Shown here: positions 1-44,805 of the stretch, piece after piece
How positions within the stretch are numbered: position 1 is the first letter of the stretch
Layout of the letters: every line of letters begins with the position of its first letter
Source: a virus
Taxonomy: Duplodnaviria; Heunggongvirae; Uroviricota; Caudoviricetes
DNA: 52,982 nt
Virus record (IMG/VR): IMGVR_UViG_2558860288_000010
Reading direction: 5' to 3' (one strand)
Translations under genes and position numbers: made by a program
The notes under the pieces: model-generated
Seen by the model: the letters and a program-made list of their open reading frames with translations, nothing else
Databases searched by the model: none
What the model was told of the DNA's origin: nothing

Positions 1-996
1 TTAAGCAGGGCTATTTTCAGCATTAGCTCTAACCACAGCTACCTCAACTGTGTCTTTCGCTATACTGTTGTAATAACTTTCTGTAAGCTCAGAAATAAGG
101 AAGTCATCCATCAATAATTTTATAAATAAATCCTTTGACACTTTCGTATCAAGAAGAATTTGAGTCCCATCTTCGGTAAATCTTATTTTACCTTTAAGCA
201 TAGGGTAGTTCTTACAGAAAATTATAATTTTGGCCGTTTCGATACCCCGCTGAATTACTGGAGAGGCTCTTGCAACTTTTGTTAATTTTCTTGCATATCT
301 TACATCTTGGATAAGCTCCGCTAATGCTTCAATATTTGAAACTATATTACGAGCCTCTATTGCAGCCATCCCAGACGTGGCCTCGCGAATAATCACTTCA
401 TGAAAACCAAATGATTTTTCTATAGTATCCAAATCAAATACAAATAACCCATCAGAGAATCTTAGCAATTGAAAGTTATCACTAATCCTAAAAAAATCAT
501 CATCAATCTTCTCGAATCTGGTTCTTGATTTTTTTAGAAAGAAATTTCTTCTTGAGAAAATATTAACGGGGGCCATGGTTTTATATAAAACCATTTGCTC
601 TCTCGCATCACCAATCTCAATAAGTAAGACCTTAATATTATTCACACCCTCTGTGGCAATATTATATAACTCATGATCATCAGTCTGTCTTACCTCATCG
701 AGAACTCTCAACTCCTCAGGTATTTCAAGATCATATTGATAGATGACCTTCACTCTCTCGTCTGATGCCGAAAGTTGTAATATTGACAATTCTTCATTTG
801 ATACAACATTGTCTCGGATATTGTCCATAAAAAGACTAATGAGCCCGCGTTGAGCATCTGGATCAATATCCATTTTTTTGGGGGTATTTGAATTTCTCGT
901 GAGTGCGTAGACAACTATTCCTAGCTGTGCTTGATTATCGATAAAATATTGAAACTTACGATCCAATGTTTCTTTATCATATATAATATCTGGCAT
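1..996 (-). CDS. Hypothetical 331-aa soluble protein, downstream partner of a membrane protein; candidate KwaB-like defense component
   Basis: Complete ORF with ATG start and AAGGG RBS 7 nt upstream. AT-rich. Sits 10 nt after the membrane-protein gene on the same strand; size and pairing fit the Kiwa architecture. No sequence-level confirmation possible here. Confidence 0.4.
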   Translation of the reverse strand: MPDIIYDKETLDRKFQYFIDNQAQLGIVVYALTRNSNTPKKMDIDPDAQRGLISLFMDNIRDNVVSNEELSILQLSASDERVKVIYQYDLEIPEELRVLDEVRQTDDHELYNIATEGVNNIKVLLIEIGDAREQMVLYKTMAPVNIFSRRNFFLKKSRTRFEKIDDDFFRISDNFQLLRFSDGLFVFDLDTIEKSFGFHEVIIREATSGMAAIEARNIVSNIEALAELIQDVRYARKLTKVARASPVIQRGIETAKIIIFCKNYPMLKGKIRFTEDGTQILLDTKVSKDLFIKLLMDDFLISELTESYYNSIAKDTVEVAVVRANAENSPA

Positions 997-2174: not shown

Positions 2175-2447
2175 CTACCCGTTCTTTTGCGCAGCCAGCA
2201 GCAATTCTAAAGCCTTTTCCCGCCCCTCTGGTGGAATTGCATCAATCAGCTCTTTAACCCTTCCCTGCCCGTTCAGCGCGCTTGGGCTGACCGAATGGGA
2301 GAAAGCAACATTCATCACAAACGAGTGACCACACTCCACGTTAGAGCAATAGCAGTACACATCGTACAGCTGAGGGTGTTTTCTGTTTGTTTTACCGATC
2401 CGCGCGACTGCCTTACATGTTGGGCAGTACATTTTCATCATCTTCAT
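2175..2447 (-). CDS. Ogr/Delta-family zinc-finger late-gene activator (about 90 aa)
   Basis: Translation MKMMKMYCPTCKAVARIGKTNRK...YCYCSNVECGHSF has the C-x2-C...C-x4-C spacing of Ogr/Delta proteins. Start refined to the ATG at 2447 with an AAGGA RBS; the track ORF begins further upstream. Confidence 0.7.
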   Translation of the reverse strand: MKMMKMYCPTCKAVARIGKTNRKHPQLYDVYCYCSNVECGHSFVMNVAFSHSVSPSALNGQGRVKELIDAIPPEGREKALELLLAAQKNG

Positions 2448-2509
2448 CGTTTTATCCTTTTGCCCGCCAGAAAAAGGGATTCTGGTTCCCTGCCTCTTGT
2501 TCTGAACGT

Positions 2510-2697
2510 GTAACACTGGTAACACGCGTAACATCGTTGATTTAAATGAATTTAATCCGTTACCAGTTAACTAAATTAAGAGGTAACGCGTGGTAACACA
2601 CCGTTTTTTGTTACCACTGTTACCAGTACATATTTTTGACTGGTAACAGTGAAGAACCGCATCAGTAGCGGGTGTTACCTCTGTTACCAGTGTTACC
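2510..2697. repeat. Array of about 12 GGTAAC(A)/(T)GTTACC repeats in both orientations; candidate replication cis site (ori/crr-like)
   Basis: Counted directly: copies at 2510, 2518, 2528, 2559, 2582, 2592, 2610, 2619, 2642, 2674, 2683 and 2692, in the non-coding gap between the primase stop and the ogr stop. Confidence 0.6.
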
Positions 2698-2723: not shown

Positions 2724-5411
2724 TTACTCGGGATCGGCGCTTCCCAGTACCTGCGTATTGAACTGATACACTCGCTTAACCCCTATTTCTGGCAGGCGTA
2801 TGCTGTTTTGTGTCCGCCCGTCCTCACCGGCTTTCAGCCAGCCCGCATCCACACACAACCTGGCCACCTTACGTGAATCAAATCCTTTACAGATTTCCTT
2901 CCAGCCGGACGGCAGCACATAAAACGTCACCACCGGTTCTGTGGTGTTGTCGCCTTTGTCCACCTTCCTGAACCCCATCATTGAAAGCGGCCGGTTTCTG
3001 TCATCGTACCAGTCTGCAAAACGGCTGAACTGGTTTCGCGTCATGAAGTCGCGTACCTGTTCAAGCGCGGTTTTGTCTTCCTGATTGGCCGCATGACCAC
3101 GATCGGCCATCCACGACGCCAGGCAGCATTCAGCCGCCCGGAATGCCTCACCTTCCGGCCAGCCGGTGATCCCGGCCTGAGTGGCCAGCTCCCCGGCCAT
3201 CGCCACCAGAGCAAAACGGGTAACCACACGGCCAACCTGATTCCCGGCATTTTCTGGTGTCAGTCTGCGGGTATATTCTTTCAGCAGGGTTTTCGCCTGG
3301 CGGGTCAGCTCAGGCAGATCCCCGGTCAGACAGTACAGCCAGTCGCGGAAAGGCGTGCCGTGATAATGCACCACCGACTGTTCCAGATGTTCTGCCAGGG
3401 TCTTCCCGCCACTGAAGCCGTGCAGCTCCTCAAACACTCCATATTTACCGGAATCGCTGGGGATCTGGATCATCCTGACCTCCACCCCGGCATAGGTTCG
3501 TTCACCGGCGTTGGCCGCATGTTCCACCAGTGACAGCTCTCCGGTGGACAGAAACAGCAGATTCCAGCGGTTGGTTTCTCTCACAGAACCATCCGTTCTG
3601 GCTCTGGCTTTCCCCTGCCCGTTCGCCAGCATATAGGCAATGTTTCCCGCCTCCCTTCCGTCAACCTCCCGGATCTCATCGAGCATCAGGGTCGCATCAT
3701 TGCGACGGCTCGCCGTTCCTTCCAGCGCATTGCCGGTAGCCCGCCACGTGTGCCAGAAGTCCGTACCACCGCAGACCGATGCGGCCACTTTCATGGTCGT
3801 GGTTTTACCGTCCGTCGATTCCCCTTTCAGGTGATAGCCGCCGCCACTCACGCCAACCAGCGTCAGCAGCGGTGCAGCAAAGGCCAGACTCACCGCAAAC
3901 GCCAGGCGGGCATTGCTGACACAATAACGCCCGATATTTTCCCGCCACTCGTCAGAAGTACCGCTGACGCGAAAATCCCGCCCCTGTACACTCGACGTCT
4001 GCAAAATAACCGACTGGGCTTCACGGCCAATCACTTCGTCCTGCAGGACATACACGCCGCCATGCCAGCCGGTTTTATTCACACAAGTGACTTTTCTGTC
4101 TGGTTTACACAGGGACAGGTATTCCATCAGGAAAGCTCTGGCCATCCCGTTGATGTTGATATAAGAAAGACCATTAACCAGTAACACGCGGCGCAGCTCT
4201 TCCCCGCTGCCGCCCAGCATTTCCATCGGCATAGCCCACTTGCGGCTGTTACCGTTTGTGTCCTCCCACTCCAGCAGACGCCCATAATTACTGCCGTCTG
4301 CATCACAGGTGATCGCAGTCACCCGCAGCGGACTGCAAATCTTGATATTGCGGATTTCCGTATCGCCATCAGACTTGTTAACCAGTTTGTCATACCACAG
4401 GTATTCCTTGGTCAGCCTGAATCCCTGCGGCAGCCGGGTCTGCCCTTTACCGTGTAGCGTCATTTCCTCGCGGAAGGCTTCACGCGCCCGATCTTTACCC
4501 ACCTCCTGCCGGTAATCATCCCAGTCCGCCTTATGGCGTACCGGGGGAAGTGTCACCCAGCCATCCACCGCTTTAGCGGCTTTCTCAGCCTGAATACGTC
4601 CGGTATTTTCCTTCCCGTCAGCCAGATCATTATCTCCGGCCAGAATGATCCGGGTCTCCGGCCAGCGCTTTCGTACTTGCTCCGTCACTTTCAGCAAATT
4701 GGTGGCCGCAACAGCCGCCACGATCCACCCTTCAGCCAGAAGGCTGACGGTCAGCGCCGTGGCATAGCCCTCCGTGATGATCACCTGTTCAGGTGTTTCA
4801 GCGGGTATATCGTTAAGGGCAATGAATGCGCCGGACAGCTGGCTGCCGGGTAGCAGGCTTTTATCACCGTCAGGGTTGATAAGCTGGCCACCGGTAATAG
4901 TCCCGGCAATATCCGTCAGTGGTAGCAGCAGCGAACCGGCAGAAAATGTCATCCCGGCCAGATTCAGAGATTGCGCCAGCAGGGGGAGTGAATACCCGTG
5001 TAAGCCCTTATTTGTCAGATAGATCGGCTCACCGTTCCGGCACTGCTGTCTGAGTCGGGTATACCGCTGCGCGCCCGTTTCTTTTCCTGCCGCCTTTTTC
5101 CTGGCGGGCAAAGCGGGTTTCTCCAGCATTTCAGGTAATGCAAGCACCTCAGATACCACATCTGCGGCTTCCTTTACCTTTCTCCCGGTCACCAGACGAA
5201 CCAGATCCAGACCATCACCATGACCGCACTGATTACAAAACCAGGTACCCCGTCCCTCTTTATCGTCGAGACGAAAGCGATCTTTGCCGCCACAGGCCGG
5301 GCAGGCTCCATGACGCCCCGCTGGCGGCACTTTGATACCTAAAGCAGACAGAATATGTGGCCAGTGCCCGACAGCAGCACCTGAAACCGCAGACACAGGT
5401 TGATTCCTCAC
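2724..5411 (-). CDS. P4 alpha-like bifunctional primase/helicase (895 aa)
   Basis: N-terminal zinc-binding motif CPACGG...FCNQCGHGDGLDLV, a central TOPRIM-like region and a C-terminal NTPase region. GTG start overlapping the stop of the upstream gene. Confidence 0.8.
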   Translation of the reverse strand: MRNQPVSAVSGAAVGHWPHILSALGIKVPPAGRHGACPACGGKDRFRLDDKEGRGTWFCNQCGHGDGLDLVRLVTGRKVKEAADVVSEVLALPEMLEKPALPARKKAAGKETGAQRYTRLRQQCRNGEPIYLTNKGLHGYSLPLLAQSLNLAGMTFSAGSLLLPLTDIAGTITGGQLINPDGDKSLLPGSQLSGAFIALNDIPAETPEQVIITEGYATALTVSLLAEGWIVAAVAATNLLKVTEQVRKRWPETRIILAGDNDLADGKENTGRIQAEKAAKAVDGWVTLPPVRHKADWDDYRQEVGKDRAREAFREEMTLHGKGQTRLPQGFRLTKEYLWYDKLVNKSDGDTEIRNIKICSPLRVTAITCDADGSNYGRLLEWEDTNGNSRKWAMPMEMLGGSGEELRRVLLVNGLSYININGMARAFLMEYLSLCKPDRKVTCVNKTGWHGGVYVLQDEVIGREAQSVILQTSSVQGRDFRVSGTSDEWRENIGRYCVSNARLAFAVSLAFAAPLLTLVGVSGGGYHLKGESTDGKTTTMKVAASVCGGTDFWHTWRATGNALEGTASRRNDATLMLDEIREVDGREAGNIAYMLANGQGKARARTDGSVRETNRWNLLFLSTGELSLVEHAANAGERTYAGVEVRMIQIPSDSGKYGVFEELHGFSGGKTLAEHLEQSVVHYHGTPFRDWLYCLTGDLPELTRQAKTLLKEYTRRLTPENAGNQVGRVVTRFALVAMAGELATQAGITGWPEGEAFRAAECCLASWMADRGHAANQEDKTALEQVRDFMTRNQFSRFADWYDDRNRPLSMMGFRKVDKGDNTTEPVVTFYVLPSGWKEICKGFDSRKVARLCVDAGWLKAGEDGRTQNSIRLPEIGVKRVYQFNTQVLGSADPE

Positions 5412-5818
5412 AGCAGTCCCCCCTGGTCTTCCGGTTTCACAAACTCAAAATCTTCAGGGAGATCTCCATCAGGGGCACCAAAAATAATATCCCGGTAAAT
5501 CTCCCGCATCTCTGTGACACCAAAAACTGACAGGTGAATATTTTCTGACATGAAGCCAGGTTTAAGCATTTTTTCCAGTTGTTCCCCGGCCAGCATGCAA
5601 CCAACTTCGGCACCAAATTCAGTCACCCACGGCATTTCAATATGATAAATAATATTGCTCACGACTTTTTCGTGGGTGAGTTCTATTCGTTCGCCATCTT
5701 CAATATAAACCGGTTCATTATGAACACGCTCCATTAAGGAAATGAATGCATCAGCAATGTAGTACCGTAAGACTGCTGTTCGTAAAGCATGCGCCTTTAA
5801 ATTTTGATTATTATTCAT
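5408..5818 (-). CDS. Hypothetical protein (about 136 aa), translationally coupled to the primase
   Basis: Track ORF 5408..5878 begins at TTG. An internal ATG at 5818 (MNNNQNLKAH...) is preceded by an AGGGAGAG RBS. Stop overlaps the primase start. Confidence 0.45.
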   Translation of the reverse strand: MNNNQNLKAHALRTAVLRYYIADAFISLMERVHNEPVYIEDGERIELTHEKVVSNIIYHIEMPWVTEFGAEVGCMLAGEQLEKMLKPGFMSENIHLSVFGVTEMREIYRDIIFGAPDGDLPEDFEFVKPEDQGGLL

Positions 5819-6047
5819 CGCGCATCTCTCCCTTAATTGTGCTGGTTTCCTTAACAACGCCATCCAGTTGTTCGGCAATACAGGCCACTAAAGCCGCAGC
5901 GCCTTCCGCTGAAACAGTTCTCGCTCCATTCACTGTGGGAACGGACAGGACCTCTGCAAGAAACTCACTGGCCAGTGCCGCCCGTAACAGACGACTCTCA
6001 CCCAGTTCGCTCAATATGCAGCCTTGCTTAAAATTCATGGATTTCAT
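5811..6047 (-). CDS. Hypothetical small protein (78 aa)
   Basis: ATG start with a strong GGGAGGTG RBS. Overlaps the neighbouring genes by a few nt at both ends. Confidence 0.45.
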   Translation of the reverse strand: MKSMNFKQGCILSELGESRLLRAALASEFLAEVLSVPTVNGARTVSAEGAAALVACIAEQLDGVVKETSTIKGEMRDE

Positions 6048-6247
6048 GCAATCACCTCCCCGGCACTTTTCACAGGGATACGGGCAGCAAAGCTCAGGAT
6101 AAATTCAGTGGCAAGTTTAAGGCGTGCAGCATGCTCGCAGTCTGCGATTACACGCACAGGACGTGGACGGGCATCACGGTCTGTACGGCGAACAGCCAGA
6201 AAGACAAAGGTAAATTCAGGGTGAGATAAAGCAGGGACTGTAGCCAT
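6044..6247 (-). CDS. Hypothetical small protein (67 aa) downstream of the structured RNA region
   Basis: ATG at 6245..6247; translation MATVPALSHPEFTFVFLAVRRTDRD.... It is the 3' part of the 196-aa track ORF 6044..6634, whose 5' part has no protein-like composition. Confidence 0.3.
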   Translation of the reverse strand: MATVPALSHPEFTFVFLAVRRTDRDARPRPVRVIADCEHAARLKLATEFILSFAARIPVKSAGEVIA

Positions 6248-6249
6248 AA

Positions 6250-6560
6250 TGGCAACCTCCGTTAGATAGCGGGTAACGCTACCACCGGAGTTCCTACGCT
6301 CATGGGTGGTAGCCCAGACGGGGGTAGGAATACCGGCTCTAACGGATACCGGCCAGCCCGAAAGCTGCCCCGCCTGGACTACCATAATTCTGATGATGTG
6401 GCGTAAAAAATAAAAACATGCAGTCAGCCACCACACCATAAATTTTAGGTGAGTCAAAGCTACGACACAAAAAAACACGCCTGGCGCGTGTTGTGTCGCC
6501 GTTAGATTACACGGGTTCCTACGCCCGGCTGCCGATTTTGCGGCAACCTTTAAACTATAT
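6250..6560 (-). ncRNA. Candidate C4/CI-type antisense RNA locus (satellite copy)
   Basis: Non-coding gap upstream of the small-gene/primase operon. Two hairpin-containing segments each carry ttcctacgc (6291..6299, 6517..6525), with a partly complementary gtaggaa segment between them (6324..6330), plus an 18-nt block tgccgattttgcggcaac (6530..6547) identical to 38449..38466. Strand inferred from the flanking genes. Confidence 0.35.
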
Positions 6561-6721
6561 CCCGCGCATTCCTGGTGAGGCAAGAAATTTATAACCGAAA
6601 ACTGAACATTGCCTGGATTAATTAACGCTGGCATGCTTAAGCCTCTGCTTAAAAATAGTTCTTCATTTTTCCTGATGCTGTAAACGAGACCCGCCTCTGA
6701 GCGGGTCTTTCTGTCGCGAAG

Positions 6722-7726
6722 TCAATCAGCAAACGTCAGGGCGCTCTCATCAACAGCCGCGTACAGTTCAGGTTCACCGAGTGCATAGCCTTCATTGCGC
6801 AGGTAGGAATGTACGTATTCACTGTTTTCATCATCAAACTCAGCACGAAACCACCGTGTTATCGCCTGAGTGTAAATATGCAGATTATCCAGCGTCGTTA
6901 CTGCCAGACGCTTACCCGGCATAAACGGGGGAATAAACGCAAAGCGGCCAGCAACAGAACTTGTAGCCATCTGTGCAGCATTCACATCAGCCGGGCGGTC
7001 TGCGGCATTAAATAACTTCAGGCGTTGATGTGCTGCCAGCTCTGCCCCAACCAGTACAACCAGACGAGGATCTTCACGAAACTGCTCAGCAATAAGCTCA
7101 GTAATCAGATGGTTGGCCAGAGCATCTATATTTTTCCAGGTGCCAGTCTCTCCCAGCATGACTGGCTCAGAGATGATTTGCTTTCCGTTCCCGTAGGCTT
7201 TCGCCAGTGCATGCCAGCCAATATTGACATCCTCGCCTTTTTTATTAATTTCCGGGTTTGTAGTATTTGCAATCGACACACCATTGAAACCGACCCGCAG
7301 CATGTCAAGCGCATATGCCTGGGCAAAAAAGCCCTCAACCGTTTTCTCAAACTCATCCGGCACGCCGGTATGGTAAATATGAGACATATCGGAATAGCTG
7401 ATCCGGGCGCAGGTATCCGTCTCGGTCAGAAAGAACTCCGTACCATTGATTGCCATTTTTTTGTGGAAACGGCCACCATCCACACGTCCGGTATGCAGTT
7501 CACTGGCACCAATATTGACGGCATTACCTGACACGGCGTTAACATCACGTAGGGTGATATTTTTAATAAGCCACCCGGATTCCAGAATTGAGGTACGCAG
7601 TATATTTTCAGTGGGTTCGCTTAATGCAAAGCGTCTGTTTGATTCTTCCTGATAGTTAGTGCCAGTGACGAATTTATTATGATAACGACGTGCTGCGTCC
7701 GGCCTTTCAGTTTTGAAGGCATACAT
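6722..7726 (-). CDS. P2 GpN-like major capsid protein homolog (334 aa)
   Basis: ATG with AAAGGTGA RBS. Motifs GFNGV, GW, EDPRLVVLVG and LDNLHIY match what I recall of P2-family capsid proteins. Needs an HMM or BLAST check. Confidence 0.45.
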   Translation of the reverse strand: MYAFKTERPDAARRYHNKFVTGTNYQEESNRRFALSEPTENILRTSILESGWLIKNITLRDVNAVSGNAVNIGASELHTGRVDGGRFHKKMAINGTEFFLTETDTCARISYSDMSHIYHTGVPDEFEKTVEGFFAQAYALDMLRVGFNGVSIANTTNPEINKKGEDVNIGWHALAKAYGNGKQIISEPVMLGETGTWKNIDALANHLITELIAEQFREDPRLVVLVGAELAAHQRLKLFNAADRPADVNAAQMATSSVAGRFAFIPPFMPGKRLAVTTLDNLHIYTQAITRWFRAEFDDENSEYVHSYLRNEGYALGEPELYAAVDESALTFAD

Positions 7727-7748: not shown

Positions 7749-8621
7749 TTAAGAAAAGATTTTATTTTTGTACTCAGTAACCCGATTGTATTTCATTACA
7801 TGCTCAACATAATCCCGGTCACTTACGACTGAACGTAATACATTATTATCTGCTCGATAGTACTCCCTGTAAGCCATAGCTCTTGCCATTCCACCGTTAT
7901 TTAATACATAACGATCAGTTGGAACGCTACAACGGCTAATAATTTCACTCACAGAATCAGACAAAGATTTGAGTGCATCTGTAATAAATTTAATATCACG
8001 GACAACGTCACCGTCATTAAACACAGAAATAAAATCAGCAGGGATCTGGCCGGATTGAGGAAATATGTTCAGTAAACGCTTCTCAACTCCCTTACCAATG
8101 TAGTTAACTTCATCGGCCAGTACGCCCGGTAAAAGCTTGATTGTGCTCAGTCGGCTATGTTGCTCATTCAGCCGGGAAACGGCCAGATGGTAACACCGTT
8201 CAGCATCCGCTCGTTCAGCATGCCCCGTTTTATTCGTTTTGGCTTCAGCAATGCTACTGACGCCGTTTTTTGAGAATGTGCTTTTCCATGCAACTTCCGC
8301 ATTTGTCACTTCACGCTGCCGAAAAGATAACTCTTCCTCTTCCTGACGACACAACTGGGCATAACGGCTCAGGAGCAGGTTGATCTCATTCGCCACAGCT
8401 TCCGTATCAGGTACTGTTAACCCCGTAAGTGAATACAACTTTTCACCTTTAGCGCGCAGCTTATTCAGTGAATATATTTCAATAATACGCACAATACAGG
8501 CCGTGTCGCTATGAGTCTCTTTAAACGGGCTTACTTTATAGCTTCCTAACACGGAAACATATTCATTCTTAATTGGAAGGGATATGTATTGACTCCCCGC
8601 CGGTTGTAGACGGTAATTCAT
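7749..8621 (-). CDS. Hypothetical 290-aa protein immediately upstream of the capsid-like gene; possible scaffold
   Basis: ATG with GAGGAG RBS. Assignment rests only on gene order (scaffold-then-capsid as in P2 O-N); no sequence similarity recognised. Confidence 0.3.
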   Translation of the reverse strand: MNYRLQPAGSQYISLPIKNEYVSVLGSYKVSPFKETHSDTACIVRIIEIYSLNKLRAKGEKLYSLTGLTVPDTEAVANEINLLLSRYAQLCRQEEEELSFRQREVTNAEVAWKSTFSKNGVSSIAEAKTNKTGHAERADAERCYHLAVSRLNEQHSRLSTIKLLPGVLADEVNYIGKGVEKRLLNIFPQSGQIPADFISVFNDGDVVRDIKFITDALKSLSDSVSEIISRCSVPTDRYVLNNGGMARAMAYREYYRADNNVLRSVVSDRDYVEHVMKYNRVTEYKNKIFS

Positions 8622-8965: not shown

Positions 8966-9763
8966 TTAATTATTTGTAAAAATTGGTTTTTTGAAAATAC
9001 TAGCAATCATTTTGCAGATTACTTCGAATGATAAGGGCGGTTCTTTCTTATCAGGCCAAAATTCGGCTGCTCGGGAAAAAACAAGCTTTGTTAGCGCTGT
9101 AGCATTGTCTTTTTTGACATTAGAGTTTTCTTTGTAAAGATAAATGGCCACACTCAAAACTTGATTTCGCTTTATTGCATGTCGCTCTTGTTGTGCAATT
9201 GATAGCGACTTATATACCTCCGAAGAAGAAACATCATTATTAATAATATTATACAGTTTTCGAACATCATCGCTTTCTATATAGCCATCATGCTCAAAAA
9301 AAAGCCCATCAGAATTTTTCCAGTCTATCTGAAAGAACTTTATCTCTTCTGAAAACACTTCCCCTGCTGGAACAAGAAGAGATGGGTATACTGGGAATTG
9401 CCCACTAAAATAAATAAAATCCTTCTGGATTCCTGGTGGGTATTTAAAATAACCTTTTATACGTAAAATAACTAAATTCTTGTCATTTTTTATCTCATGT
9501 ATTTTTATGAGACTATATTGACTAATATAACTATACCCCTCGTCATCCTTATCCAATGAATCAAGATGATTAATAAATTCATTTATACATCTAACTCGAT
9601 GCTTTGAGAAATTACCCTCCCTGCCAACAGATGCAGAGAATGAAAGTTCATTCTCTCCTGCCAGATAAAAAACATCCGCCTCTTCGCAATTTAGCATCTT
9701 AGCAACTTCTGCTACTTGATAATGCGTGCGAAATAGTTTCAAAGGAATGGTTTTATTAGCCAT
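8966..9763 (-). CDS. Hypothetical AT-rich 265-aa protein, translationally coupled to the integrase
   Basis: ATG at 9761..9763 overlaps the integrase stop by 8 nt. Markedly AT-rich compared with the integrase and primase. No recognisable motif. Confidence 0.5.
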   Translation of the reverse strand: MANKTIPLKLFRTHYQVAEVAKMLNCEEADVFYLAGENELSFSASVGREGNFSKHRVRCINEFINHLDSLDKDDEGYSYISQYSLIKIHEIKNDKNLVILRIKGYFKYPPGIQKDFIYFSGQFPVYPSLLVPAGEVFSEEIKFFQIDWKNSDGLFFEHDGYIESDDVRKLYNIINNDVSSSEVYKSLSIAQQERHAIKRNQVLSVAIYLYKENSNVKKDNATALTKLVFSRAAEFWPDKKEPPLSFEVICKMIASIFKKPIFTNN

Positions 9764-10943
9764 TACGATTCATTCCCTCAATAAAATCAGCATACCATTG
9801 CATCATTTCTCTGCGTCCTTCCAGATATTGAGCATGGTTATAAATTCCGCGAATAGAATTTTTATCTAAATGAGCAAGCTGGGTTTCAATCCATGCACTG
9901 TTAAATCCTTTCTCATGCAGAATTGTACTCATCGTATGCCTGAAACCATGCCCCGTAACACGCCCTGCATATCCAATACGTTTAAACACCTGATTAATGC
10001 TTGCTTCACTCATAAATTTGCTAGGATCGTTGCGTCCAGGGAACATCAGCGGGTAGTTCCCAGTTAGTTCTTTCAAACATTTGAGATGGGATAATGCTTG
10101 TTTTGGCAACGGGACAATATGGCTCCTACGCATTTTCATACGTTCTTTTGGGATCTCCCACACCGCATTATCAAAATCCACCTCACGCCACTCACCTGCT
10201 CTTAGTTCTCCTGTTCTTAGACCCGTCAGGATAAGTAAATGTGCCCCCAGCAATACAATTGGGCTTCCTGAATAAGCGTTAAGGGCAGTAAAGAACTCCG
10301 GCAGCTCGTTGGCTTTGAGGAATGGATAGTGGACTGCTTCATGTCCTTGCATCGCACTGGCAAGATCCGGTGCAGGATTGTAGATTGCTCTACCCGTTAC
10401 GATGGCATAGCGGAAAACTTCACCGCATCGCTGACGGACTTTCTTCGCTTTCTCCATAGCACCTCGTGCTTCTATCAACCTCAGTACTTCAAGTAGTTCA
10501 AGGGGCTGAATATCGGCTATAGGTCTGTGTCCAATATGCGGGAAAATGTCTTTCTCAAACGCCTCAATTATGTCTGAAGCATAGCCCTCAGACCATTTGG
10601 GAGATTTCATTTTGTGCCACTCTAACGCCACTTCTCTAAATGGGTTAAGTGTCTCGATCGCTGCGTTTAAAGCATGCTTCTTTGCTTTTTTCACTTCGCC
10701 AGGATCTTCACCAGCGACGAGTAGTTTCTTTGCGTCTTCGCGTTTTTGTCTGGCATCGGCGAGGGTGACTGTTGGATAGACACCAAAGGACAAGCGCTTC
10801 TCTTTACCAGCAAAACGGTACTTCATACGCCAGTAACGCGAGCCATTAGGTTCAACCTGAAGGTACAGGCCACCTCCATCAGATAGCTTATAGCTCTTCT
10901 CTTTTCCTTTAGCGGCTTCAACCTTGCGGGCATTCAGCATCAT
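9756..10943 (-). CDS. int: P4-type tyrosine integrase
   Basis: N-terminal arm-binding-like region (KSYKLSDGGGLYLQVEPNGSRYWRMKYRF) and C-terminal catalytic region with HGFRHT and a Tyr near the C-terminus. Likely ATG-ATG start at 10943; the track start at 11012 is TTG. Sits 165 bp from the tRNA-derived repeat. Confidence 0.85.
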   Translation of the reverse strand: MMLNARKVEAAKGKEKSYKLSDGGGLYLQVEPNGSRYWRMKYRFAGKEKRLSFGVYPTVTLADARQKREDAKKLLVAGEDPGEVKKAKKHALNAAIETLNPFREVALEWHKMKSPKWSEGYASDIIEAFEKDIFPHIGHRPIADIQPLELLEVLRLIEARGAMEKAKKVRQRCGEVFRYAIVTGRAIYNPAPDLASAMQGHEAVHYPFLKANELPEFFTALNAYSGSPIVLLGAHLLILTGLRTGELRAGEWREVDFDNAVWEIPKERMKMRRSHIVPLPKQALSHLKCLKELTGNYPLMFPGRNDPSKFMSEASINQVFKRIGYAGRVTGHGFRHTMSTILHEKGFNSAWIETQLAHLDKNSIRGIYNHAQYLEGRREMMQWYADFIEGMNRNG

Positions 10944-11107
10944 TGGGGGCACATTTCCTAGACCGAACAGAACATGCCCCCGATTGTGCCCCCAATTGTA
11001 TGTTGATTTCAAGAGATAGGGGTTGACGTCAAATGACGAAGAATCGCGTAATAACTATGTTTTTAAAGGGTTTTGTTGATTTGAGATGACTTGGAAATAC
11101 TAAGGGA

Positions 11108-11153
11108 TGGTGCCGATAATAGGAGTCGAACCTACGACCTTCGCATTACGAAT
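11108..11153. repeat. 46-bp exact duplicate of the tRNA-Thr 3' end (att site between the two elements)
   Basis: tggtgccgataataggagtcgaacctacgaccttcgcattacgaat is identical to 51539..51584. Confidence 0.85.
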
Positions 11154-11594
11154 CTGTAGCACCAATCATAACTATCTGTTTTAGCAAGCATTAACCGCAT
11201 TCACTAAGCTATAGTTGATGGCACAAACAGAAAGTTGATGCATGATGTTGTCATGTGTATGTCACAAATACGGCACAACGATCTTCAAACATGTAGCCAC
11301 ACATCCACAGAAGAGCGCAAAGCCTTGCAATCCAGTACAAAGCTTTGTGTGTCTCATTTTTGTCTCACCTTTTATTACGCAAAAAAAGATAAGCCTGAAA
11401 CCAAACGGCGCCATAGGCATGTTAACGGGAGAATTACCTACCAGGAACTTACAAACCGTTTAAATGATGTGGAAGTATTAACATGTAAAATCGGTAACGG
11501 CTGGAAATCATTCAATACTCGCACTATCAAAAGTTCACCAGCCAGCCGCAGCACGTTCTTGCATACGACGTGGCTGCGGCATATCACAAAACGA

Positions 11595-12179
11595 TTATTC
11601 CATGACAGGGATTACCGGCCACTCAACATCAGGTGCAGTTGATGTATCAACACGGTTCAGCAACACCCGATACTTTTTCCAGGCTTCCAGCAATGAGGTT
11701 TCTACCTCCGTTGCGATCTCAAGATCTACCGCATCCTGAAGTGGCGCAATATGCTCACTGGCTACCCGCATGAGGCTGTTTTTTGTTTCTTCCGCCTCCC
11801 GTATCCGAAACAGTTTTTCTGCTTCTGCATCTTTCACCCAGGTTGTGCCGTTCCACTTCTGATATTCCCCATCCGGCGACAACCAGGTGACATTTTCCGG
11901 TAACGGGCCGAGTTCAGAAATAAATAACGCGTCCCCTGATGCCACGTCATAGACCGTTTTTTCCCTGTGGTCTTCAACGAGATGCCATGATGTATCCTCA
12001 CTGTTAAAAACAGCCACGAAGCCAGCCGGAATATCTGGCGGTGCAATATCGGTACTATTTGCAGGCAGACCTGTATGAGGGGGAATGTATGCATCACCTT
12101 CACCAATAAATTCATTGGTTCCGGCCAGCAGATTATAAATTTTTATAGTCCGTGGTTGTTCACTCATTCTGAATGCCAT
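11595..12179 (-). CDS. tfa: Tail fiber assembly protein
   Basis: 194-aa ORF directly downstream of the tail fiber gene; typical size and position. Confidence 0.65.
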
Positions 12180-13867
12180 TATGCAAGCCTCACAATATAG
12201 TTAAATGCGATGTTTTTGACGGTGTTTTCCGCGTTACCAGCAGCGTTAACGGTGATGGTGTGTCCATGTGCACCCAGCGCCACAGTGTGTGCATGGGCAC
12301 CAATACCTACGGTGTGGTTATGCTGACCAATATCGACTGTATGGGCGTGTGCTCCGTCAGAGCTTGACACCTGGTTGGTTCCTGACACCTGAACACGTTG
12401 TTTACCCCCAATGGAGTCACCACCGTAACGACCACCGACAGTGTGCGTATGCGCTCCTGTATTGTTTGTCGTTTTTGTGCCGTGGTTAAACGTGCTGACT
12501 GTTTTTGTCCCGTAATCAAACGAACTGGTTGTTTTCGTACCCAAATCCGTACTGGATGCACTGGCACTGTGGGTATGCGATTTAATGCCGTCCTGTTCCT
12601 GAGACAATACAGCGCGACCACTGGCGGGTTTGCCCTTAATTGTCCAGCCACGCATATCAGGGATCACACCAGATGGGTAAGCTGCTGCAAGCAGGGGATA
12701 GGCAGCCTTGTCAAAAGTCTGCCCCTGCATAATCGCATAACCTTCCGGAACTATGTCCGAAGGCCAGGCTATTGGTGCCCCCACAGGAAAAGCATTAACA
12801 GGTTCAAATCCCCGTTCAAATCCATACCCATCACGGGATGAGCGGTAATAAAGCCCTCTGTTTTTATAATCCGCACGTAGCTGAAATGACCGGCAACTCC
12901 CTACACCACTAAAAAAATGAGCAACGATATATGAAGCGCCGCCGTCCATGACATTGTAAAGACCGCTTTTTGCGTTCCATGGCACCCCACCATCTGAACT
13001 CGGATACTGACCTGTACACCCAAGAGAAAAAGCATTTACATCTTCAGGTGATAACTTAATGTCAGATGACAGCGCGTGACCATTAACCTTACGTCCTGAG
13101 GGCACACGCCCGTTTGCATTGTCATTAGCAGCTTTCACTGCTTTCGGAGTCGCGGCAAGCGTTTCAGAGTCACTGTTAGTGGCGCTGCTTAACTGAACAA
13201 TCCCTTTTCGTGCCGTGGTGGCGTCCTGTGCAGTGTATTTGCCATCAGCAAGGTCATATGCTGTCTTAACCGCCTTTGATGTCGCTGCCTGTGTCTCACT
13301 GGTGCTGTTCACCGCACTGTTCAGTTGCACCAGACCTTTTTGCTTAGTCGTGGCATCCAGAACACCAAGAGACTCGCGGGATTCTTTTTGCGCGCCAGCT
13401 CCGCGCGCTTTTATTTCCTTCAGGTTCTGGTCAATGCGCAGAAAAAGTCCGTCTCCCGTTGCCACATTTAACGTGATGTTTGAGGTGTCAGATACAGCAA
13501 GCCGGAACTGCATATTGACACTGACACCGCCAACCGGTTTGTCAATCGCCGGGCAGTTCGCCACGGCATACAATTCCCCTCCATCAGTCATCAGTCCCAC
13601 TTCGCGGACTGTAAAACCTCCCGTTCCCGTTGGTAGCACAATTCTGGCCATGAGCTGTGTCGGCTGTTCCGGTGATACCACCAGCTCTGCAATATCTCCA
13701 CGGTAGGTTTCATTAACAAGCTGCGTTTGTGCCGGATCGGGTTTCAGCGGTTTGCCATTACTGTCGCCAACCACAAACTGTGTCAGAATAATCTGGCTAC
13801 CACTGGCAAGCGCTTCCGCCTCCAGTTCTTTTCCCCGGTTAGTAATAATTGAATAATATTCAGCCAT
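12179..13867 (-). CDS. Tail fiber protein
   Basis: Repeat-rich translation (...[21 protein letters not shown]... twice; C-terminal GAHxHTV repeats). ATG at 13867 with GGGGAG RBS; the track start is further upstream. Confidence 0.7.
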
Positions 13868-14423
13868 GAGACTCCCCGGCAAAAATATCCACATCGATAT
13901 GTGCTGTCGTCGCACCTGAAATATAAAAAGCGCCATCCATCCCGATATTCGCCAGAACATCTATTTTGCTCAGATGACTGCGCAGGTTTTTAGCCCGGTC
14001 AGTAAGCTGACGAATCTGGTGATACAGTGCATCGCTGACGCCCTGACTGCTGTGAACTTCAATCCGGAATGTGTAGGGTGCAGCCTGCGGTGAATCCTGC
14101 CACCACTCCACGACAGTGGTCGGCAGGTTTACCGCCCCCAGAGAACGCCTGACCGCACCCGCCGTTCCCCGGTGCTGGTGCACGTAAGCGGCGTCCTTAA
14201 TCACCTGGCGCTTTTGTGTCTCTGTCCAGCTGTCATCCCAAAAATCGACGGCATGTTCCCACGCAAGCCACGGTAAAAGATGTGCCGGGCAGCTGGCCGC
14301 ATCTTTCACCTTACGCACCATGTTGGTATCCAGTGCGATGATGTGTTCTGTCGTCGCCTGCTCCTGCGCCCGTTCTTCATGAAATGCGCCCGGCGGCAGC
14401 AGGGAGCGAAATTTATCCGTCAT
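13860..14423 (-). CDS. Baseplate/tail protein, GpI-like
   Basis: Position between the GpJ-like gene and the tail fiber, as in P2; ATG start. Confidence 0.55.
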
Positions 14424-15333
14424 GGCTGCTTACCTCCCTGCGGGTGACGTTGATGGCAGTACACCACGGTGCTTTTCCGGCTTCGGCTTCCAGATCAGCC
14501 ACGGGAGAGATCAGTCTGACGCGAACCACACCGGATTGCTGTAAAGCGGCATAGATGGCAGATAACGGCACCACGGTGTTAATCCGGTGAGACAGCATGG
14601 TGTAGGACTGCAAGGCTTCAATGGCATTGTTCAGAACTGTCGTGGCGTCCGGGCCGTCCGGGATCTCCAGTTCAGCCGTGATGGCATAATTTGTGATGGT
14701 GGCGCTCTTCACCGTCACGTAGTCTGTCAATGGACGGATTTCATCGGCATTCAGTGTGCTGTTAACTTTATCCAGCAGTGGTGCAGCTGCTGTTCCGTCT
14801 CCCGTACGGGAAAGCACATACACATCAACACACCCCGGGCGGCTGTGTGTTTCGGGGCCATAAGCTTCAGCATCCAGCACATCGGTATCCGCCGATTTCG
14901 CATGGAAGCGGTAAGCGTTGCGGGCACCCGCCGTATTTAGCTGTGCCCAGGACAACTGAATACGTTCACGAAATGCGCCGTCATCTTCCAGTTCCACTTC
15001 GACGGGGGGAACGGCATCCGGATCACCCGGTCTGATAACCTGGCGTTTAACATTGAAGGCAGCGCCAATATGATCAAGGTCTGCGCCTCTGGCGCTGGCA
15101 AGAAATACTGCCCGCACTGCATCATTGACACGCTGAAAGGCCAGCGTCAGCTGATATGCATTCACCTCTCCCTGTTTAAACGCCGGATCGGACTCTACCA
15201 GCGCATCAAACTGCGGATCCAGCTCCTGCAGACGTGCCAGCCATCGGGAGAAAATCTCTGCGGCATCCGGCACTACAAGCGCATCAGGAACAGCGAGTTC
15301 AGACAGATTGATCACATCATAACTGTTGGGCAT
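14413..15333 (-). CDS. Baseplate assembly protein, GpJ-like
   Basis: 306-aa ORF in the conserved W-J-I-H order; ATG start. Confidence 0.6.
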   Translation of the reverse strand: MPNSYDVINLSELAVPDALVVPDAAEIFSRWLARLQELDPQFDALVESDPAFKQGEVNAYQLTLAFQRVNDAVRAVFLASARGADLDHIGAAFNVKRQVIRPGDPDAVPPVEVELEDDGAFRERIQLSWAQLNTAGARNAYRFHAKSADTDVLDAEAYGPETHSRPGCVDVYVLSRTGDGTAAAPLLDKVNSTLNADEIRPLTDYVTVKSATITNYAITAELEIPDGPDATTVLNNAIEALQSYTMLSHRINTVVPLSAIYAALQQSGVVRVRLISPVADLEAEAGKAPWCTAINVTRREVSSHDG

Positions 15334-15670
15334 TTAGCGTTATTTCTCCTGTTCTGACGGGTAAGCCGTCTTCTTTTTTGATCCCTTCGATATCCAGAAC
15401 ACAGCCGGATTCGCCCGCCGGGAAGGTGACCATCACCCGCGTCACCTTTAAACGCGGCTCCCAGCGAGCCAGTGCAGTCGCTGAAGCGGCGATTATCCGC
15501 AGACGCGTCAGGTCATCCCGTGGGTTATCCAGCAACGAAAACAGTTCACTGCCATAGTCACGGATCAGCACACGACTCCCGACGGGCGTGGTCAGAATGT
15601 CCCGGACAGACTGGCGCAAATGCGCCACGCCAGACAGACGTTTGCCTGTCCGGCTGTTTACACCGTTCAT
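15317..15670 (-). CDS. Baseplate assembly protein, GpW-like
   Basis: 117-aa ORF, size and order typical of GpW/gp25-like baseplate wedge proteins. Confidence 0.55.
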   Translation of the reverse strand: MNGVNSRTGKRLSGVAHLRQSVRDILTTPVGSRVLIRDYGSELFSLLDNPRDDLTRLRIIAASATALARWEPRLKVTRVMVTFPAGESGCVLDIEGIKKEDGLPVRTGEITLNAQQL

Positions 15671-15710
15671 GATGATTTTCCGTTACAAAAGCGCCGGATG
15701 GCGCGATGGA

Positions 15711-16829
15711 TTAACCGAAGTAAGCCGGACCAGTTTTATCCTGTTGCTTCGATTTTTTTGCTGATTTTTGTGGTTTGTGAATATCCACCACCAGATTGCA
15801 GGTATAACTGAATCCGGCAGCGGTCAGTGAAAAGACCAGCGACTCAACCACCCAGGCTCTGTCTTCCCGGGTACCAAATCCTGAGGTTGCCACCCCTGCT
15901 TCTGCCGTCAGGGGAATATGCTGTGGTCGGCAGGGGCCGGTGAGCGTCATTTTCTGCTCATTCCGTCTTGCCTGTGTTTTTCGTGCTTTCGCCTGCTTCT
16001 CTGCCGTATCCTTTTCTGACTGGGTATACGGGTTGGTCATTGCCGGTCCGTCATGTTCGACCGCTGCGGTTTTTGTCCTGCCATCCACTTCATCGTAATA
16101 GCGAACCCCGATTTTCTCTTTTGCTTTACCCCCGCTTTCCGTGACTTTACCCGTGGAACTCCCCCGCTCACCTTCACTGTATGACCACGTTGTCACGTCT
16201 GCAGGCGTAATGGTGATACTGTCAATCTGTTTACCGGAAACTGTCGCTGTCGCCCCCTGCGGCAGAAAAAGCCAGTAACCACCGGAAGGTTTACTCACCG
16301 CGTTGTAGATGCGGGCAAGCCGGGACAGCAGGTTAGCATCAGATTCAGCCACCTGGTCGATGTGGTTAATGTGAATATCTTTCAGCGCGGCAGCGACTCT
16401 GGGGATCAGGCCATTATCGGTGGCCACGGTTTTCACCACATCCTCCAGACGAATGTTATCCCAGCTTCGTGTTTTCTGACTGGTGACGTCACCGGGTTGC
16501 TTCCGGGCATTCATGGGCGCTGCGGTGGCATAAATTTCAATGCGCCTCGGTGGCCCACTGCTGGCAACTCCGCTGACAACAAACCAGCCTTTATCGACAA
16601 GCTGCTCATTAAATCCCAGCGCAACCTGTAGTCGCGCCCCTCTGGGCGGAAGTGTCAGCGTTTCAGAAAGCAGGGTAATCTTCAGTTCATCGGCTCTGGC
16701 GGTCGCGCCACCGTAATCTGTCAGCGTCAGTTCAGAAAGGCATTGCTCAATTATGCGGGTAATATCTTTCCCTTCTGCCTTTATGCGGAATGCTGGCGCA
16801 TATTCAGGAGTCATCGTCTGAGAAACCAT
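15711..16829 (-). CDS. Tail protein, GpD-like
   Basis: Position after the tape measure/U/X genes; probable ATG at 16829 (track start is TTG). Confidence 0.5.
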   Translation of the reverse strand: MVSQTMTPEYAPAFRIKAEGKDITRIIEQCLSELTLTDYGGATARADELKITLLSETLTLPPRGARLQVALGFNEQLVDKGWFVVSGVASSGPPRRIEIYATAAPMNARKQPGDVTSQKTRSWDNIRLEDVVKTVATDNGLIPRVAAALKDIHINHIDQVAESDANLLSRLARIYNAVSKPSGGYWLFLPQGATATVSGKQIDSITITPADVTTWSYSEGERGSSTGKVTESGGKAKEKIGVRYYDEVDGRTKTAAVEHDGPAMTNPYTQSEKDTAEKQAKARKTQARRNEQKMTLTGPCRPQHIPLTAEAGVATSGFGTREDRAWVVESLVFSLTAAGFSYTCNLVVDIHKPQKSAKKSKQQDKTGPAYFG

Positions 16830-16830
16830 A

Positions 16831-17046
16831 TTAATCCCATAAGCTGAATGCAGACTCCACAACCGGGATCACCCGTTCCGGCAGAATAACAGACTGACCG
16901 GAGGGATATACCGCGCCACGATCAGCCAGCCCGGGATTTGCCTCCAGAACCTGGATTATCGTGTCAGCGAGATTTTCGCTGCCATAGTGCGCGGCGCAAA
17001 TCGCATCCAGCACATCACCGTCACGGGTTTGATATATCGTCGGCAT
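16831..17046 (-). CDS. Tail protein X, GpX-like
   Basis: 71 aa; ...DVLDAICAAHYG...ANPGLADRGAVYPSGQSVILPE resembles P2 GpX. Confidence 0.6.
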   Translation of the reverse strand: MPTIYQTRDGDVLDAICAAHYGSENLADTIIQVLEANPGLADRGAVYPSGQSVILPERVIPVVESAFSLWD

Positions 17047-17491
17047 AGTGTTTCAGTGTCATTGTCCAGTTTTTATTACGGTGACCACCTCCCGGCAGGA
17101 ACCGGTTAGTGGTGTCAGTAAAGTCAGTTACCACCCACCATCCCAGAACATCCCCTTCTCCACTGACCAGCTGCAGTGGCTTCGCCTGGTCGGCAAGAGC
17201 AAACAGGTCATTGACGGGGCCAACACCTTTTCGAAAAAAGGCATGGGATTCGCCTTCAAGTCTGACGGTACGCCCCGGCTTTCCAGTGTACTGGAGAAGA
17301 TCCTGCTTACCAATGCGCTCCTGTTCGCTCCAGCGCCAGGTTGCTTCGCGGGTCAGCTGGTTATAGGCTGTCGTATCAATCGAAAAAGCAAAATCTCCCA
17401 GCATCATCATCACGCGGGCGGTTCCTGCCGAACGCAGGTTTTCAGCCTGTTGCTGACCAAATTCATCAATAAAAGACATGAAATTACTCAC
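17021..17491 (-). CDS. Tail protein, GpU-like
   Basis: Contains MMMLGDFAF..., reminiscent of the P2 GpU N-terminus. Start ambiguous: GTG at 17491, ATG at 17479 or ATG at 17410. Confidence 0.45.
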   Translation of the reverse strand: MSNFMSFIDEFGQQQAENLRSAGTARVMMMLGDFAFSIDTTAYNQLTREATWRWSEQERIGKQDLLQYTGKPGRTVRLEGESHAFFRKGVGPVNDLFALADQAKPLQLVSGEGDVLGWWVVTDFTDTTNRFLPGGGHRNKNWTMTLKHYADDISNP

Positions 17492-19398: not shown

Positions 19399-19500
19399 AG
19401 TTCATCGTCTCCAGTTCATCAGTAAGAAAATCAGAGAAAGTGCTGAACGGCATATCCAGATAGTCCGACATCGGAAAATGCAGTCGCCGTCCAAGGAGTT

Positions 19501-19812
19501 TTATCGCCCGGAGGAGGTGTCTTTCGGACGCTTCGCGGGCGGTAGCATAAAAACATTGAAGGCATCCAGCAGTTGCGCATAGTCTGCAGCCGTCAGTTGC
19601 CAGATGTCCTTTTCACTGAGGTTGCACAACAGCGCAATCATCCGGGCTTCTTTTTCTTCTTCATTACCGCGATCTTTGGCATGAGCAATACGATCGCGCA
19701 CCAGCGGTTCACGCATCGTCACTTCCTCAAGGATCACGCCACCCTCCAGAATGACAGGGGAAAACAATCGGATAACGCGGGTTTCACCGGGAAAAGGCAT
19801 AATCACCTCCAT
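19501..19812 (-). CDS. Tail assembly chaperone (putative)
   Basis: 103-aa ORF between tube and tape measure; ATG with GGAGGTGA RBS. Confidence 0.4.
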   Translation of the reverse strand: MEVIMPFPGETRVIRLFSPVILEGGVILEEVTMREPLVRDRIAHAKDRGNEEEKEARMIALLCNLSEKDIWQLTAADYAQLLDAFNVFMLPPAKRPKDTSSGR

Positions 19813-19858
19813 TAAAAAACGGCCCGCAGGCCGTCAGGTAGTTAAAGAACGGGAATAA

Positions 19859-20365
19859 TCAGAGACGAACTTTTGCCGCCAGACCCGACAACATATCGAC
19901 ACCATTTACCCGACGGGAAAAGCGCTCGGTATCAATGGCAAACAGTTCACGACCATCCAGCGTCTGTCGGTAATAACTGACCGCAATATCGACCGTGATA
20001 GCATTTTCAGAAAGATTATCCTTACCCCGCGCATCCGGCGTGACAGCCTGAATAAACCCTTCAATTTCCTCAACAGTACCGCGAGCAGTACCGTTGCCGA
20101 GATACCCCTGGTAGGCCGTAAAGCGGGAACGACTGCCACTGACAAATCCAAAGCTGGCCAGCATATCCGTGTCCAGACCGTAAAATTTCACCTGACAGGT
20201 CAGTGCTTCCATCCCGTCATCCACGGGCGTGGGCGCATCCTGGGCACCAGTTCGCAGGTCAGTTTTCACGATTGTCAGCGATGGTGGCGTAAACTCATGC
20301 GCCCCCTGAATACGGATCCCCTGCCGGAAGAAAGTCCAGGCACGTAGTGTATTTTTATCGCTCAT
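19859..20365 (-). CDS. Contractile tail tube protein
   Basis: 168-aa ORF directly after the sheath gene; ATG start. Confidence 0.6.
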   Translation of the reverse strand: MSDKNTLRAWTFFRQGIRIQGAHEFTPPSLTIVKTDLRTGAQDAPTPVDDGMEALTCQVKFYGLDTDMLASFGFVSGSRSRFTAYQGYLGNGTARGTVEEIEGFIQAVTPDARGKDNLSENAITVDIAVSYYRQTLDGRELFAIDTERFSRRVNGVDMLSGLAAKVRL

Positions 20366-21831: not shown

Positions 21832-21868
21832 GTCTTTCTCCAGCCATAAAAAAACCTGCCGCAGCAGG

Positions 21869-23030: not shown

Positions 23031-23040
23031 TGTGATGACC

Positions 23041-23697: not shown

Positions 23698-23698
23698 A

Positions 23699-24384: not shown

Positions 24385-24455
24385 TTTTACCTCCGGTATA
24401 AGCGGCTCCCGACGGTGCCGCCTGAGTAAAAAAAACCGCCTGACGCGGCGGTGAA

Positions 24456-28002: not shown

Positions 28003-28010
28003 GAATGACC

Positions 28011-30340: not shown

Positions 30341-30343
30341 GGC

Positions 30344-31736: not shown

Positions 31737-31767
31737 TTGCATGAGTTGCCCATCGATATGGTCAGCT

Positions 31768-34624: not shown

Positions 34625-34640
34625 TCTGATTACGAAAAAG

Positions 34641-34790: not shown

Positions 34791-34813
34791 ACTTTCAGTA
34801 AACAATTGGCATA

Positions 34814-44803: not shown

Positions 44804-44805
44804 TT

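Follow-up and report, generated by a model that had tools for sequence, protein, structure and literature searches.

Here we describe the immunity locus of a satellite prophage in a stretch of tailed-virus DNA of 52,982 nucleotides (nt) (Caudoviricetes; IMG/VR record IMGVR_UViG_2558860288_000010), referred to below, at its full length, as the window. Positions 6583..6247 of its minus strand very probably hold a complete P4-type satellite immunity cassette, whose homologue in P4 is the PLE-seqA-cI-seqC-kil/eta region. The antisense immunity RNA at the center of this cassette is a clear, ordinary member of a well-studied family and has its own recognition sequences. An earlier note, made from the sequence, had proposed an RNA of this kind and compared its target-antisense-target layout with those of P1/P7 C4 RNA and P4 CI RNA. 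That reading is correct: the motifs pair in all 27 non-identical loci of the comparison described below, with compensatory changes. The cassette consists of the following elements.

6583..6554, minus strand: putative PLE-like sigma-70 promoter (TTGCCT, 18-nt spacer, TATAGT), from a consensus scan; lies within the eta-like open reading frame (ORF)
6547..6470, minus strand: leader of the isrK/seqA type, 78 nt, ending at the intrinsic terminator
6547..6528, minus strand: leader hairpin 1, GUUGCCG-CAAAAU-CGGCAGC, at the start of the isrK and c4-a1b1 matches
6512..6527, minus strand: leader hairpin 2, whose loop presents target b1, GUAGGAA (6522..6516)
6506..6499, minus strand: target a1, UCUAACGG, in the single-stranded leader linker; perfect 8-nt complement of loop a'
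6492..6467, minus strand: intrinsic terminator ending the short leader RNA, a G+C-rich stem of 7 base pairs (bp) followed by U7, from a terminator scan; the 3' hairpin of the isrK model
6389..6302, minus strand: C4/CI-type antisense RNA, 88 nt, a 17-bp closing stem and two hairpins
6345..6338, minus strand: loop a', CCGUUAGA, the loop of the second C4 hairpin
6330..6324, minus strand: b', UUCCUAC, an unpaired C4 junction
6299..6291, minus strand: target b2, GCGUAGGAA, in the loop of a 3-bp hairpin starting 3 nt after C4
6283..6265, minus strand: conserved hairpin between b2 and a2, GGUAGCG-UUACC-CGCUAUC, present in the predicted fold
6266..6259, minus strand: target a2, UCUAACGG (9 nt counting A6258), overlapping the Shine-Dalgarno sequence GGAGG at 6260..6256
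6044..6247, minus strand: Icd/Kil-like gene of 67 amino acids, the first translated gene of the operon, AUG at 6247; NCBIfam NF033153 (phage_ICD_like), 69.7 bits
6044..6634, minus strand: eta-like ORF of 196 amino acids, ATG start; a single frame spanning promoter, leader, C4 and kil

Membership in the family was established with a whole-window Rfam scan. The C4 antisense RNA model (RF01695) matches 6302..6389 on the minus strand over all 87 model positions with 81.0 bits (gathering score 45; E = 2e-14), and the isrK model (RF01394) matches the leader, 6470..6547 on the same strand, with 71.8 bits against 50. A second C4 match of 74.8 bits lies at 38282..38367 (minus strand), with an isrK leader match (38392..38464, minus strand) just upstream, in a lambdoid prophage that occupies the same window. 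In a permissive scan the c4-a1b1 model (RF03163, "a1, b1 targets of C4") reached 43.7 bits at 6508..6560, just under its cut-off of 46.7; leader membership therefore rests on the isrK model. As a positive control, the experimentally defined immunity region of P4 (NC_001609) was run through the Rfam models. It gave the three matches in the same order and strand as in the satellite locus, at 74.9 bits for C4 (8420..8507), 60.8 for isrK and 44.1 for c4-a1b1, so that the P4 leader likewise falls below 46.7. At the nucleotide level, the leader-to-kil stretch of the window is about 71 % identical to P4 8318..8707 (annotated cI) over 363 nt in BLAST.

RNA folding agrees with these matches. The 310-nt transcript folds with a z-score of -5.95 and its minimum free energy (MFE) structure, which also holds the hairpin between b2 and a2, includes the C4 fold. 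All 27 of the C4 model pairs are canonical in the satellite copy, and a CC(C)A-like motif directly follows its closing stem, at the place where the prophage copy and P4 have CCA. The earlier note had named a C4 covariance-model search and folding of the minus-strand transcript as ways to check its proposal, and both came out in its favor, at the satellite locus and, for the model search, at the prophage locus as well.

The resemblance to P4 extends over the whole region. Promoter, leader hairpins, U-tract terminator, C4-fold RNA and Shine-Dalgarno target follow one another in identical order, as do, further downstream, a Kil-like gene, a nested eta-like ORF and an alpha-type primase operon. 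In the alignment with P4, the hexamers of the putative promoter recur upstream of its leader, and the 67-amino-acid Icd/Kil-like protein aligns with P4 Kil with clear homology. For this group of elements, three papers provide the framework: the CI RNA pairs with seqA and seqC, leading to transcription termination (PMC4825925); in P4-like prophages, seqA and CI have structural homologues in IsrK and C4 (PMC3632133); and the Rfam profiles for C4 and isrK pick up these RNAs in satellites, for which the eta/kil logic is described (PMC10111431).

Recognition by the satellite RNA involves two sets of complementary sequences. The earlier note had started from two hairpin-borne copies of TTCCTACGC. 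Both are real and they are the only two in the window, at 6291..6299 and 6516..6524; the second had been placed one position too high, at 6517..6525. On the minus strand both sit in small hairpin loops, as CGGG-CGUAGGAA-CCCG in the leader and GAG-CGUAGGAA-CUC downstream, and the GTAGGAA reported between them is present at 6324..6330. The b set (UUCCUAC with GUAGGAA) had thereby been seen; the second set, loop a' CCGUUAGA with UCUAACGG, had been missed. All matches of the window targets to the C4 elements are perfect, over 8 nt at a1, 9 at a2, 7 at b1 and 7 at b2. When the loops were shuffled, none of 5000 shuffles found complementarity of at least 7 nt at all four window target sites, and the layout of targets and antisense elements is far beyond chance.

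Relatives were collected by scanning viral contigs with a 14-mer anchor in leader hairpin 1, outside the recognition elements, and passing what it found through a covariance model derived from P4 and both copies in the window. The anchor found 119 loci, of which 27 have a C4 match, the remainder being mostly chance matches; the 27 are non-identical and include the window satellite copy and P4. The earlier note held that failure of the motifs to pair in related sequences would refute it. Instead, both loops match both target copies throughout: perfect complements of 6-10 nt stand at fixed sites in 27/27 loci. In the leader, the start of b1 precedes a1 by 13-16 nt (in one locus the longest a1 match is elsewhere), and after C4 the b2 target follows at 1-4 nt and a2 at 31-50 nt. 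Among P4-type relatives the position of a2 is narrower, 35-36 nt after C4, directly upstream of a start codon at +53/+54. These spacings hold for sequences that differ widely, with 16 distinct a' loop strings and 7 b' junction strings (about 13 and 5 core motifs) among the 27 loci. The mean match is 7.0-8.5 nt for cognate and 4.4-4.8 nt for non-cognate combinations.

Covariation was followed in an alignment of 16 P4-type units. Every one of the 15 loop-to-leader pairs is formed in 100 % of cells, and 12 of them have changed on both sides. No shuffle out of 500 reached this result, and registers slid along the alignment pair in 33-51 % of cells. By module, the b1-b' helix keeps 7/7 pairs and the a1-a' helix 8/8 pairs in 16/16 sequences, each with 6 pairs changed on both sides. 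The C4 stems are 100 % paired, again with 6 pairs changed on both sides. Downstream of C4 the b'-b2 helix is 100 % paired with compensatory changes in 6/7 pairs. The whole structure scored for the loop-to-downstream scheme is 97.8 % paired, falling short because MAFFT set three sequences 1 nt out of register at a2, where they otherwise have perfect 9-nt matches. The stem letters of the hairpin at 6283..6265 co-vary across the alignment by inspection, and the terminator is conserved in 16/16 units.

Several points weigh against our interpretation of the locus. Duplex energies separate cognate pairs (-17.0 to -19.6 kcal/mol) from non-cognate pairs (-6.6 to -17.0) only moderately; this matrix discriminates weakly because short G+C-rich junctions pair spuriously with the stems of hairpins, and it was not taken as main evidence. 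The anchoring of relatives in hairpin 1 means that conservation of this hairpin cannot be judged from the set; loops and targets played no part in the selection. The 16 P4-type units are related to one another, so that the shuffle controls overstate independence, a weakness from which the slid-register control is free. Promoter and terminator are consensus matches only. Finally, the gene content upstream is unlike that of P4: sid, psu and epsilon were not recognized in the satellite with Pfam, NCBIfam or PHROGs, and a homologue of a P2-type capsid gene lies just upstream of eta, where P4 has the alpA/vis-like orf88.

The earlier note saw no credible coding frame in this region, and here it was wrong: the 196-amino-acid ORF covers it and is conserved in relatives. 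The kil frame is open for 309-606 nt upstream of the AUG in 15/16 P4-type loci (the 309-nt case reaches the contig end), running through C4, terminator, leader and promoter, and the other two frames close within 12-135 nt. The length differences contributed in total by the variable spacers are multiples of three in most P4-type loci. In the window the ORF starts MPAL, like the P4 ORF at the Met giving 197 codons. This long ORF shares the kil frame and begins upstream of the putative constitutive promoter, as expected of eta; in P4, too, eta contains the constitutive promoter (PMC10111431, summarising Forti et al. 1999). Judged by these sequence features, the ORF corresponds to P4 eta. An AUG at the 5' edge of the C4 stem (6385, minus strand), part of an AUUAUGG that the Rfam consensus also shows as conserved, shares its frame with both kil and eta in the satellite.

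Current annotation presents this stretch differently. In RefSeq records of the identical element the PGAP label of the 196-amino-acid ORF is 'host cell division inhibitor Icd-like protein', and no RNA gene is listed (for example L002, E. coli BCE049, NZ_CP042250, 9067..9657). Copies of the locus in E. coli BCE049 and NCTC9100 are 100 % identical. The Icd-like model covers residues 141-188 only, and with no RNA gene listed the RefSeq annotation therefore misses the main feature. Similarly, the P4 reference record still names the equivalent ORF a cI 'transcriptional repressor' protein.

If the annotation were taken at face value, the region would simply code for an Icd-like protein and its RNA-like features would be incidental. 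We consider this extremely improbable, even though PGAP calls the ORF in identical E. coli copies and its frame is conserved in 15/16 relatives. Beyond the narrow reach of the Icd-like match, the predicted promoter lies inside the ORF, and its N-terminal part holds the U7 terminator and two covariance-model matches well above threshold. Variation in this part obeys RNA pairing, with compensatory changes about 200 nt apart, which protein coding fails to explain. P4 itself sets the precedent, the old 'cI protein' annotation of the stretch having been superseded by the CI RNA, and the open frame is better explained as an eta-type regulatory ORF that coexists with the RNA. Very improbable, too, is that the cassette has lost its function and persists as a relic in a defective satellite undergoing decay. 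Such decay would fit the lack of a recognizable sid or psu and of any P2-type helper visible in the window. Against it, the four target sites and the 27 C4 pairs are all intact, and none of the integrase, primase, Ogr/Delta, kil and eta frames is interrupted. Moreover, 448 of 5426 complete E. coli genomes contain the 501-nt stretch 6200..6700 over at least 80 % of its length, and the majority of best matches reach 95 % identity or more.

A further alternative concerns what the RNAs do. The short leader might act mainly as an IsrK-type activator, instead of or besides repression, either in trans on the long transcript or by titrating C4 through a1 and b1, so opening the ribosome-binding site and turning on the genes downstream. 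The leader has its own terminator as well as the isrK match, and its exact complements of both C4 loops make a decoy conceivable; in Gifsy-1, the short IsrK activates translation of orf45-anrP (PMC4825925). We nevertheless regard this as unlikely to be the main activity. In P4, the closest homologue, seqA is reported to be needed to establish immunity and to be a target of CI-dependent termination (PMC3632133, PMC4825925). The decoy test by the Gifsy-1 authors was unsupportive, co-expression of STnc1160 having strengthened growth arrest (PMC4825925), and the genes downstream in the satellite are of P4 type and not an antirepressor. A trans-activating or decoy role of the short leader is possible as an additional layer to antisense repression, and we do not favor it as the main function.

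In P1 and P4, a C4-type RNA of about 77-90 nt is processed from a longer transcript by RNase P. By analogy with work on P4, P1 and Gifsy-1, we propose that the satellite cassette operates as follows. Transcription would start at the constitutive promoter at 6583..6554 (minus strand), and the leader would display b1 (GUAGGAA) and a1 (UCUAACGG) before stopping at the intrinsic terminator. From transcripts that read through, the 88-nt C4/CI RNA (6389..6302) would be cut out as a stable small RNA. Its elements a' (CCGUUAGA) and b' (UUCCUAC) would pair with a1 and b1 in the leader and with the second copy, b2 and a2, directly downstream. Where a2 overlaps the Shine-Dalgarno sequence of the Icd/Kil-like gene, pairing would be expected to block translation and to promote premature termination. 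The primase operon would be kept off in this way, and the satellite would remain lysogenic and be immune to superinfecting elements that share its specificity. Upon induction, transcription from an upstream late promoter would allow the long eta-like ORF to be translated through the region, rendering the transcripts insensitive to the RNA.

The prophage locus in the same window is a second cassette of this family with a different specificity.

38464..38224, minus strand: heteroimmune cassette of the lambdoid prophage, with an isrK-type leader (38464..38392) and C4 (38367..38282)

Its C4 loops are UUUGAGUAG and ACGCCAA. The leader targets b1 and a1, UUGGCGU then CUACUCAA, lie within 38441..38418, and the downstream targets b2 and a2 within 38278..38224; UUGGCGU occurs twice. 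Here a2 (CUACUCAA) falls in codons 2-4 of a Bro-N/P22_AR_C antirepressor gene (38235..37627). The AUG at the C4 edge of the prophage copy opens an ORF of 36 codons (38363..38253, minus strand) which ends 18 nt before the antirepressor AUG and may be the counterpart of Gifsy-1 orf45, described in PMC4825925 as translationally coupled to anrP.

The two cassettes share the 18-mer TGCCGATTTTGCGGCAAC, identical at 6530..6547 and 38449..38466 and the longest block common to both loci. By pointing out this identity, the earlier note hinted at a link between satellite and prophage. We reject such a link: the block is leader hairpin 1, a feature of the family that is conserved in the Rfam isrK and c4-a1b1 consensus, in P4, and in PY54 and phiKO2, which retain the hairpin although its stem has changed in a compensatory manner; the loop there reads CAAAAUC or CAAAUUC. 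We likewise reject direct cross-talk of the two C4 RNAs in the window, the best cross-matches being 3-6 nt compared with 7-9 nt for cognate pairs. With cross-complementarity of at most 6 nt, the two window cassettes should therefore be heteroimmune. P4 and the co-resident lambdoid prophage have other loop sequences than the satellite, which should therefore be heteroimmune to both. A search of the window for further targets of the satellite RNA found none, paired b and a targets occurring at the two cassette sites only; a plus-strand 'match' is the complement of the C4 gene itself.

Differences from P4 are concentrated in the recognition modules. P4 has CCUGUGAA with UUCACAGG as its a' module, compared with CCGUUAGA with UCUAACGG in the satellite, and UUCUCAC with GUGAGAA as its b' module, compared with UUCCUAC with GUAGGAA; the changes are matched at all target copies. 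In addition, the spacer from terminator to C4 is 27 nt shorter in the satellite than in P4.

The P1/P7 c4 RNA, part of the immI operon (c4 - icd - ant), gave RF01695 its name and is in that Rfam family together with the satellite RNA. As in the satellite, the RNA is co-transcribed with its targets, has a' and b' elements, finds a1/b1 upstream and a2/b2 at a ribosome-binding site, and is followed by an Icd-like first gene. According to descriptions of P1, the controlled product there is Ant, the antirepressor of the C1 repressor; the satellite, like P4, controls its own replication operon. Citron and Schuster reportedly set out the logic of the P1/P7 c4 RNA in 1990. Additional background on P1 is given in PMC8201110. 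The IsrK-STnc1160-orf45-anrP locus of Gifsy-1 has its likeness in the second locus of the window, with an isrK leader, a C4-like RNA and a Bro-N/P22_AR_C antirepressor, and the satellite leader matches the same isrK model as Gifsy-1-type loci. Satellite and lambdoid types differ in what lies downstream: the satellite controls a Kil and primase operon with a long eta frame, whereas the lambdoid frame is open only 9 nt upstream of its AUG.

The closest phage matches in nucleotide sequence, 83-86 % over leader and C4, come from the N15-like telomere phages PY54 and phiKO2. They share b' UUCCUAC with GUAGGAA targets and have an icd gene next; their a' loops differ, being CCGUUGGG in PY54 and of the GCUGAUUG type in phiKO2. 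The PY54 a' loop has one central U-U mismatch with its targets. Downstream genes are annotated as antirepressor in phiKO2, and in PY54 icd is followed by a protelomerase gene. Full cross-immunity with PY54 or phiKO2, as their 83-86 % identity might suggest, is rejected, b' alone being common.

The window modules recur in other combinations. One relative (L065, 4813..4900) combines the a' of the window with the b' of P4, and PY54 (L122, 1600..1687) and phiKO2 (L123, 1598..1685) combine the b' of the window with other a' loops. The UUCCUAC junction is also found in several satellites besides these phages. Given the combinations in L065, PY54 and phiKO2, the recognition modules therefore reassort independently. 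From this one could speculate, though we think it unlikely, that the two modules form a combinatorial, recombining specificity code across unrelated mobile elements. If this were true, and if one matching module sufficed to repress in part, partial cross-immunity would connect satellites with telomere phages and lambdoid prophages. Such a network could affect which elements coexist or are co-induced, and would bear on the idea, put forward in PMC3632133, that phage-borne IsrK-C4 systems interfere with satellites.

The surrounding genes fit a P4-type satellite.

2724..6047, minus strand: controlled operon, comprising orf78 (5811..6047), orf156 (5408..5878) and an alpha-like primase of 895 amino acids (2724..5411)
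9756..11012: tyrosine integrase, flanking gene of the satellite
2175..2534: Ogr/Delta zinc finger protein, flanking gene of the satellite

The order of the operon genes is that of the P4 left operon. The alpha-like primase has the Pfam domains DUF927, Toprim_3 and Zn_Ribbon_Prim, orf156 has a weak DUF5375 match and belongs to phrog_5991, and RefSeq annotates a helix-turn-helix regulator in an identical copy of the satellite. Directly upstream of the eta/C4 cassette, in the position of P4 orf88, are two ORFs at 6722..7726 and 7749..8621 (minus strand). The first encodes a divergent homologue of the P2-family major capsid protein (Pfam PF05125, 1e-66; phrog_70; TIGR01551 at 200 bits, below the cut-off of 219.65), and the preceding ORF, of 290 amino acids, is without an informative match. 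The capsid homologue could be a capsid-related hijacking or decoy function. Downstream of the Ogr/Delta gene and unlike P4, the satellite carries a Kiwa anti-phage system (1..1650, minus strand; kwaA 1006..1650, kwaB 1..996), whose position fits the known defense hotspots of P4-like satellites.

A 48-nt exact direct repeat (11106..11153 and 51537..51584) is the 3' part of a tRNA-Thr(CGU) gene at 51539..51614 (minus strand). The lambdoid prophage of about 40 kb (~11154..51536) and the satellite (from before position 1 to ~11105) therefore appear to have integrated one next to the other at a single tRNA-Thr attachment site. The junction between satellite and prophage is absent from the complete E. 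coli genomes of the collection, the best match reaching 50 % of a 4.5-kb query. Within the prophage, an Rfam IS009 match (RF02111, 208.6 bits) at 11638..11836 (minus strand) lies wholly inside a tail-fibre-assembly gene (11595..12179, phrog_105), and this 'sRNA' family may here track conserved coding sequence.

This kind of RNA is already established as a family, as are the way it works and its occurrence in both P4-like satellites and lambdoid prophages (RF01695 and RF01394; PMC3632133, PMC4825925 and PMC10111431). What is new here is a member of the family with its own specificity, in a satellite that is uncharacterized yet common in E. coli. The analysis yields a corrected anatomy of the cassette, covariation data and a point of annotation, namely an RNA locus that current records present as an Icd-like protein. 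The window also provides a natural example of heteroimmunity, with two C4 cassettes of different loop and target sets standing about 32 kb apart, one in a satellite and the other in a lambdoid prophage.

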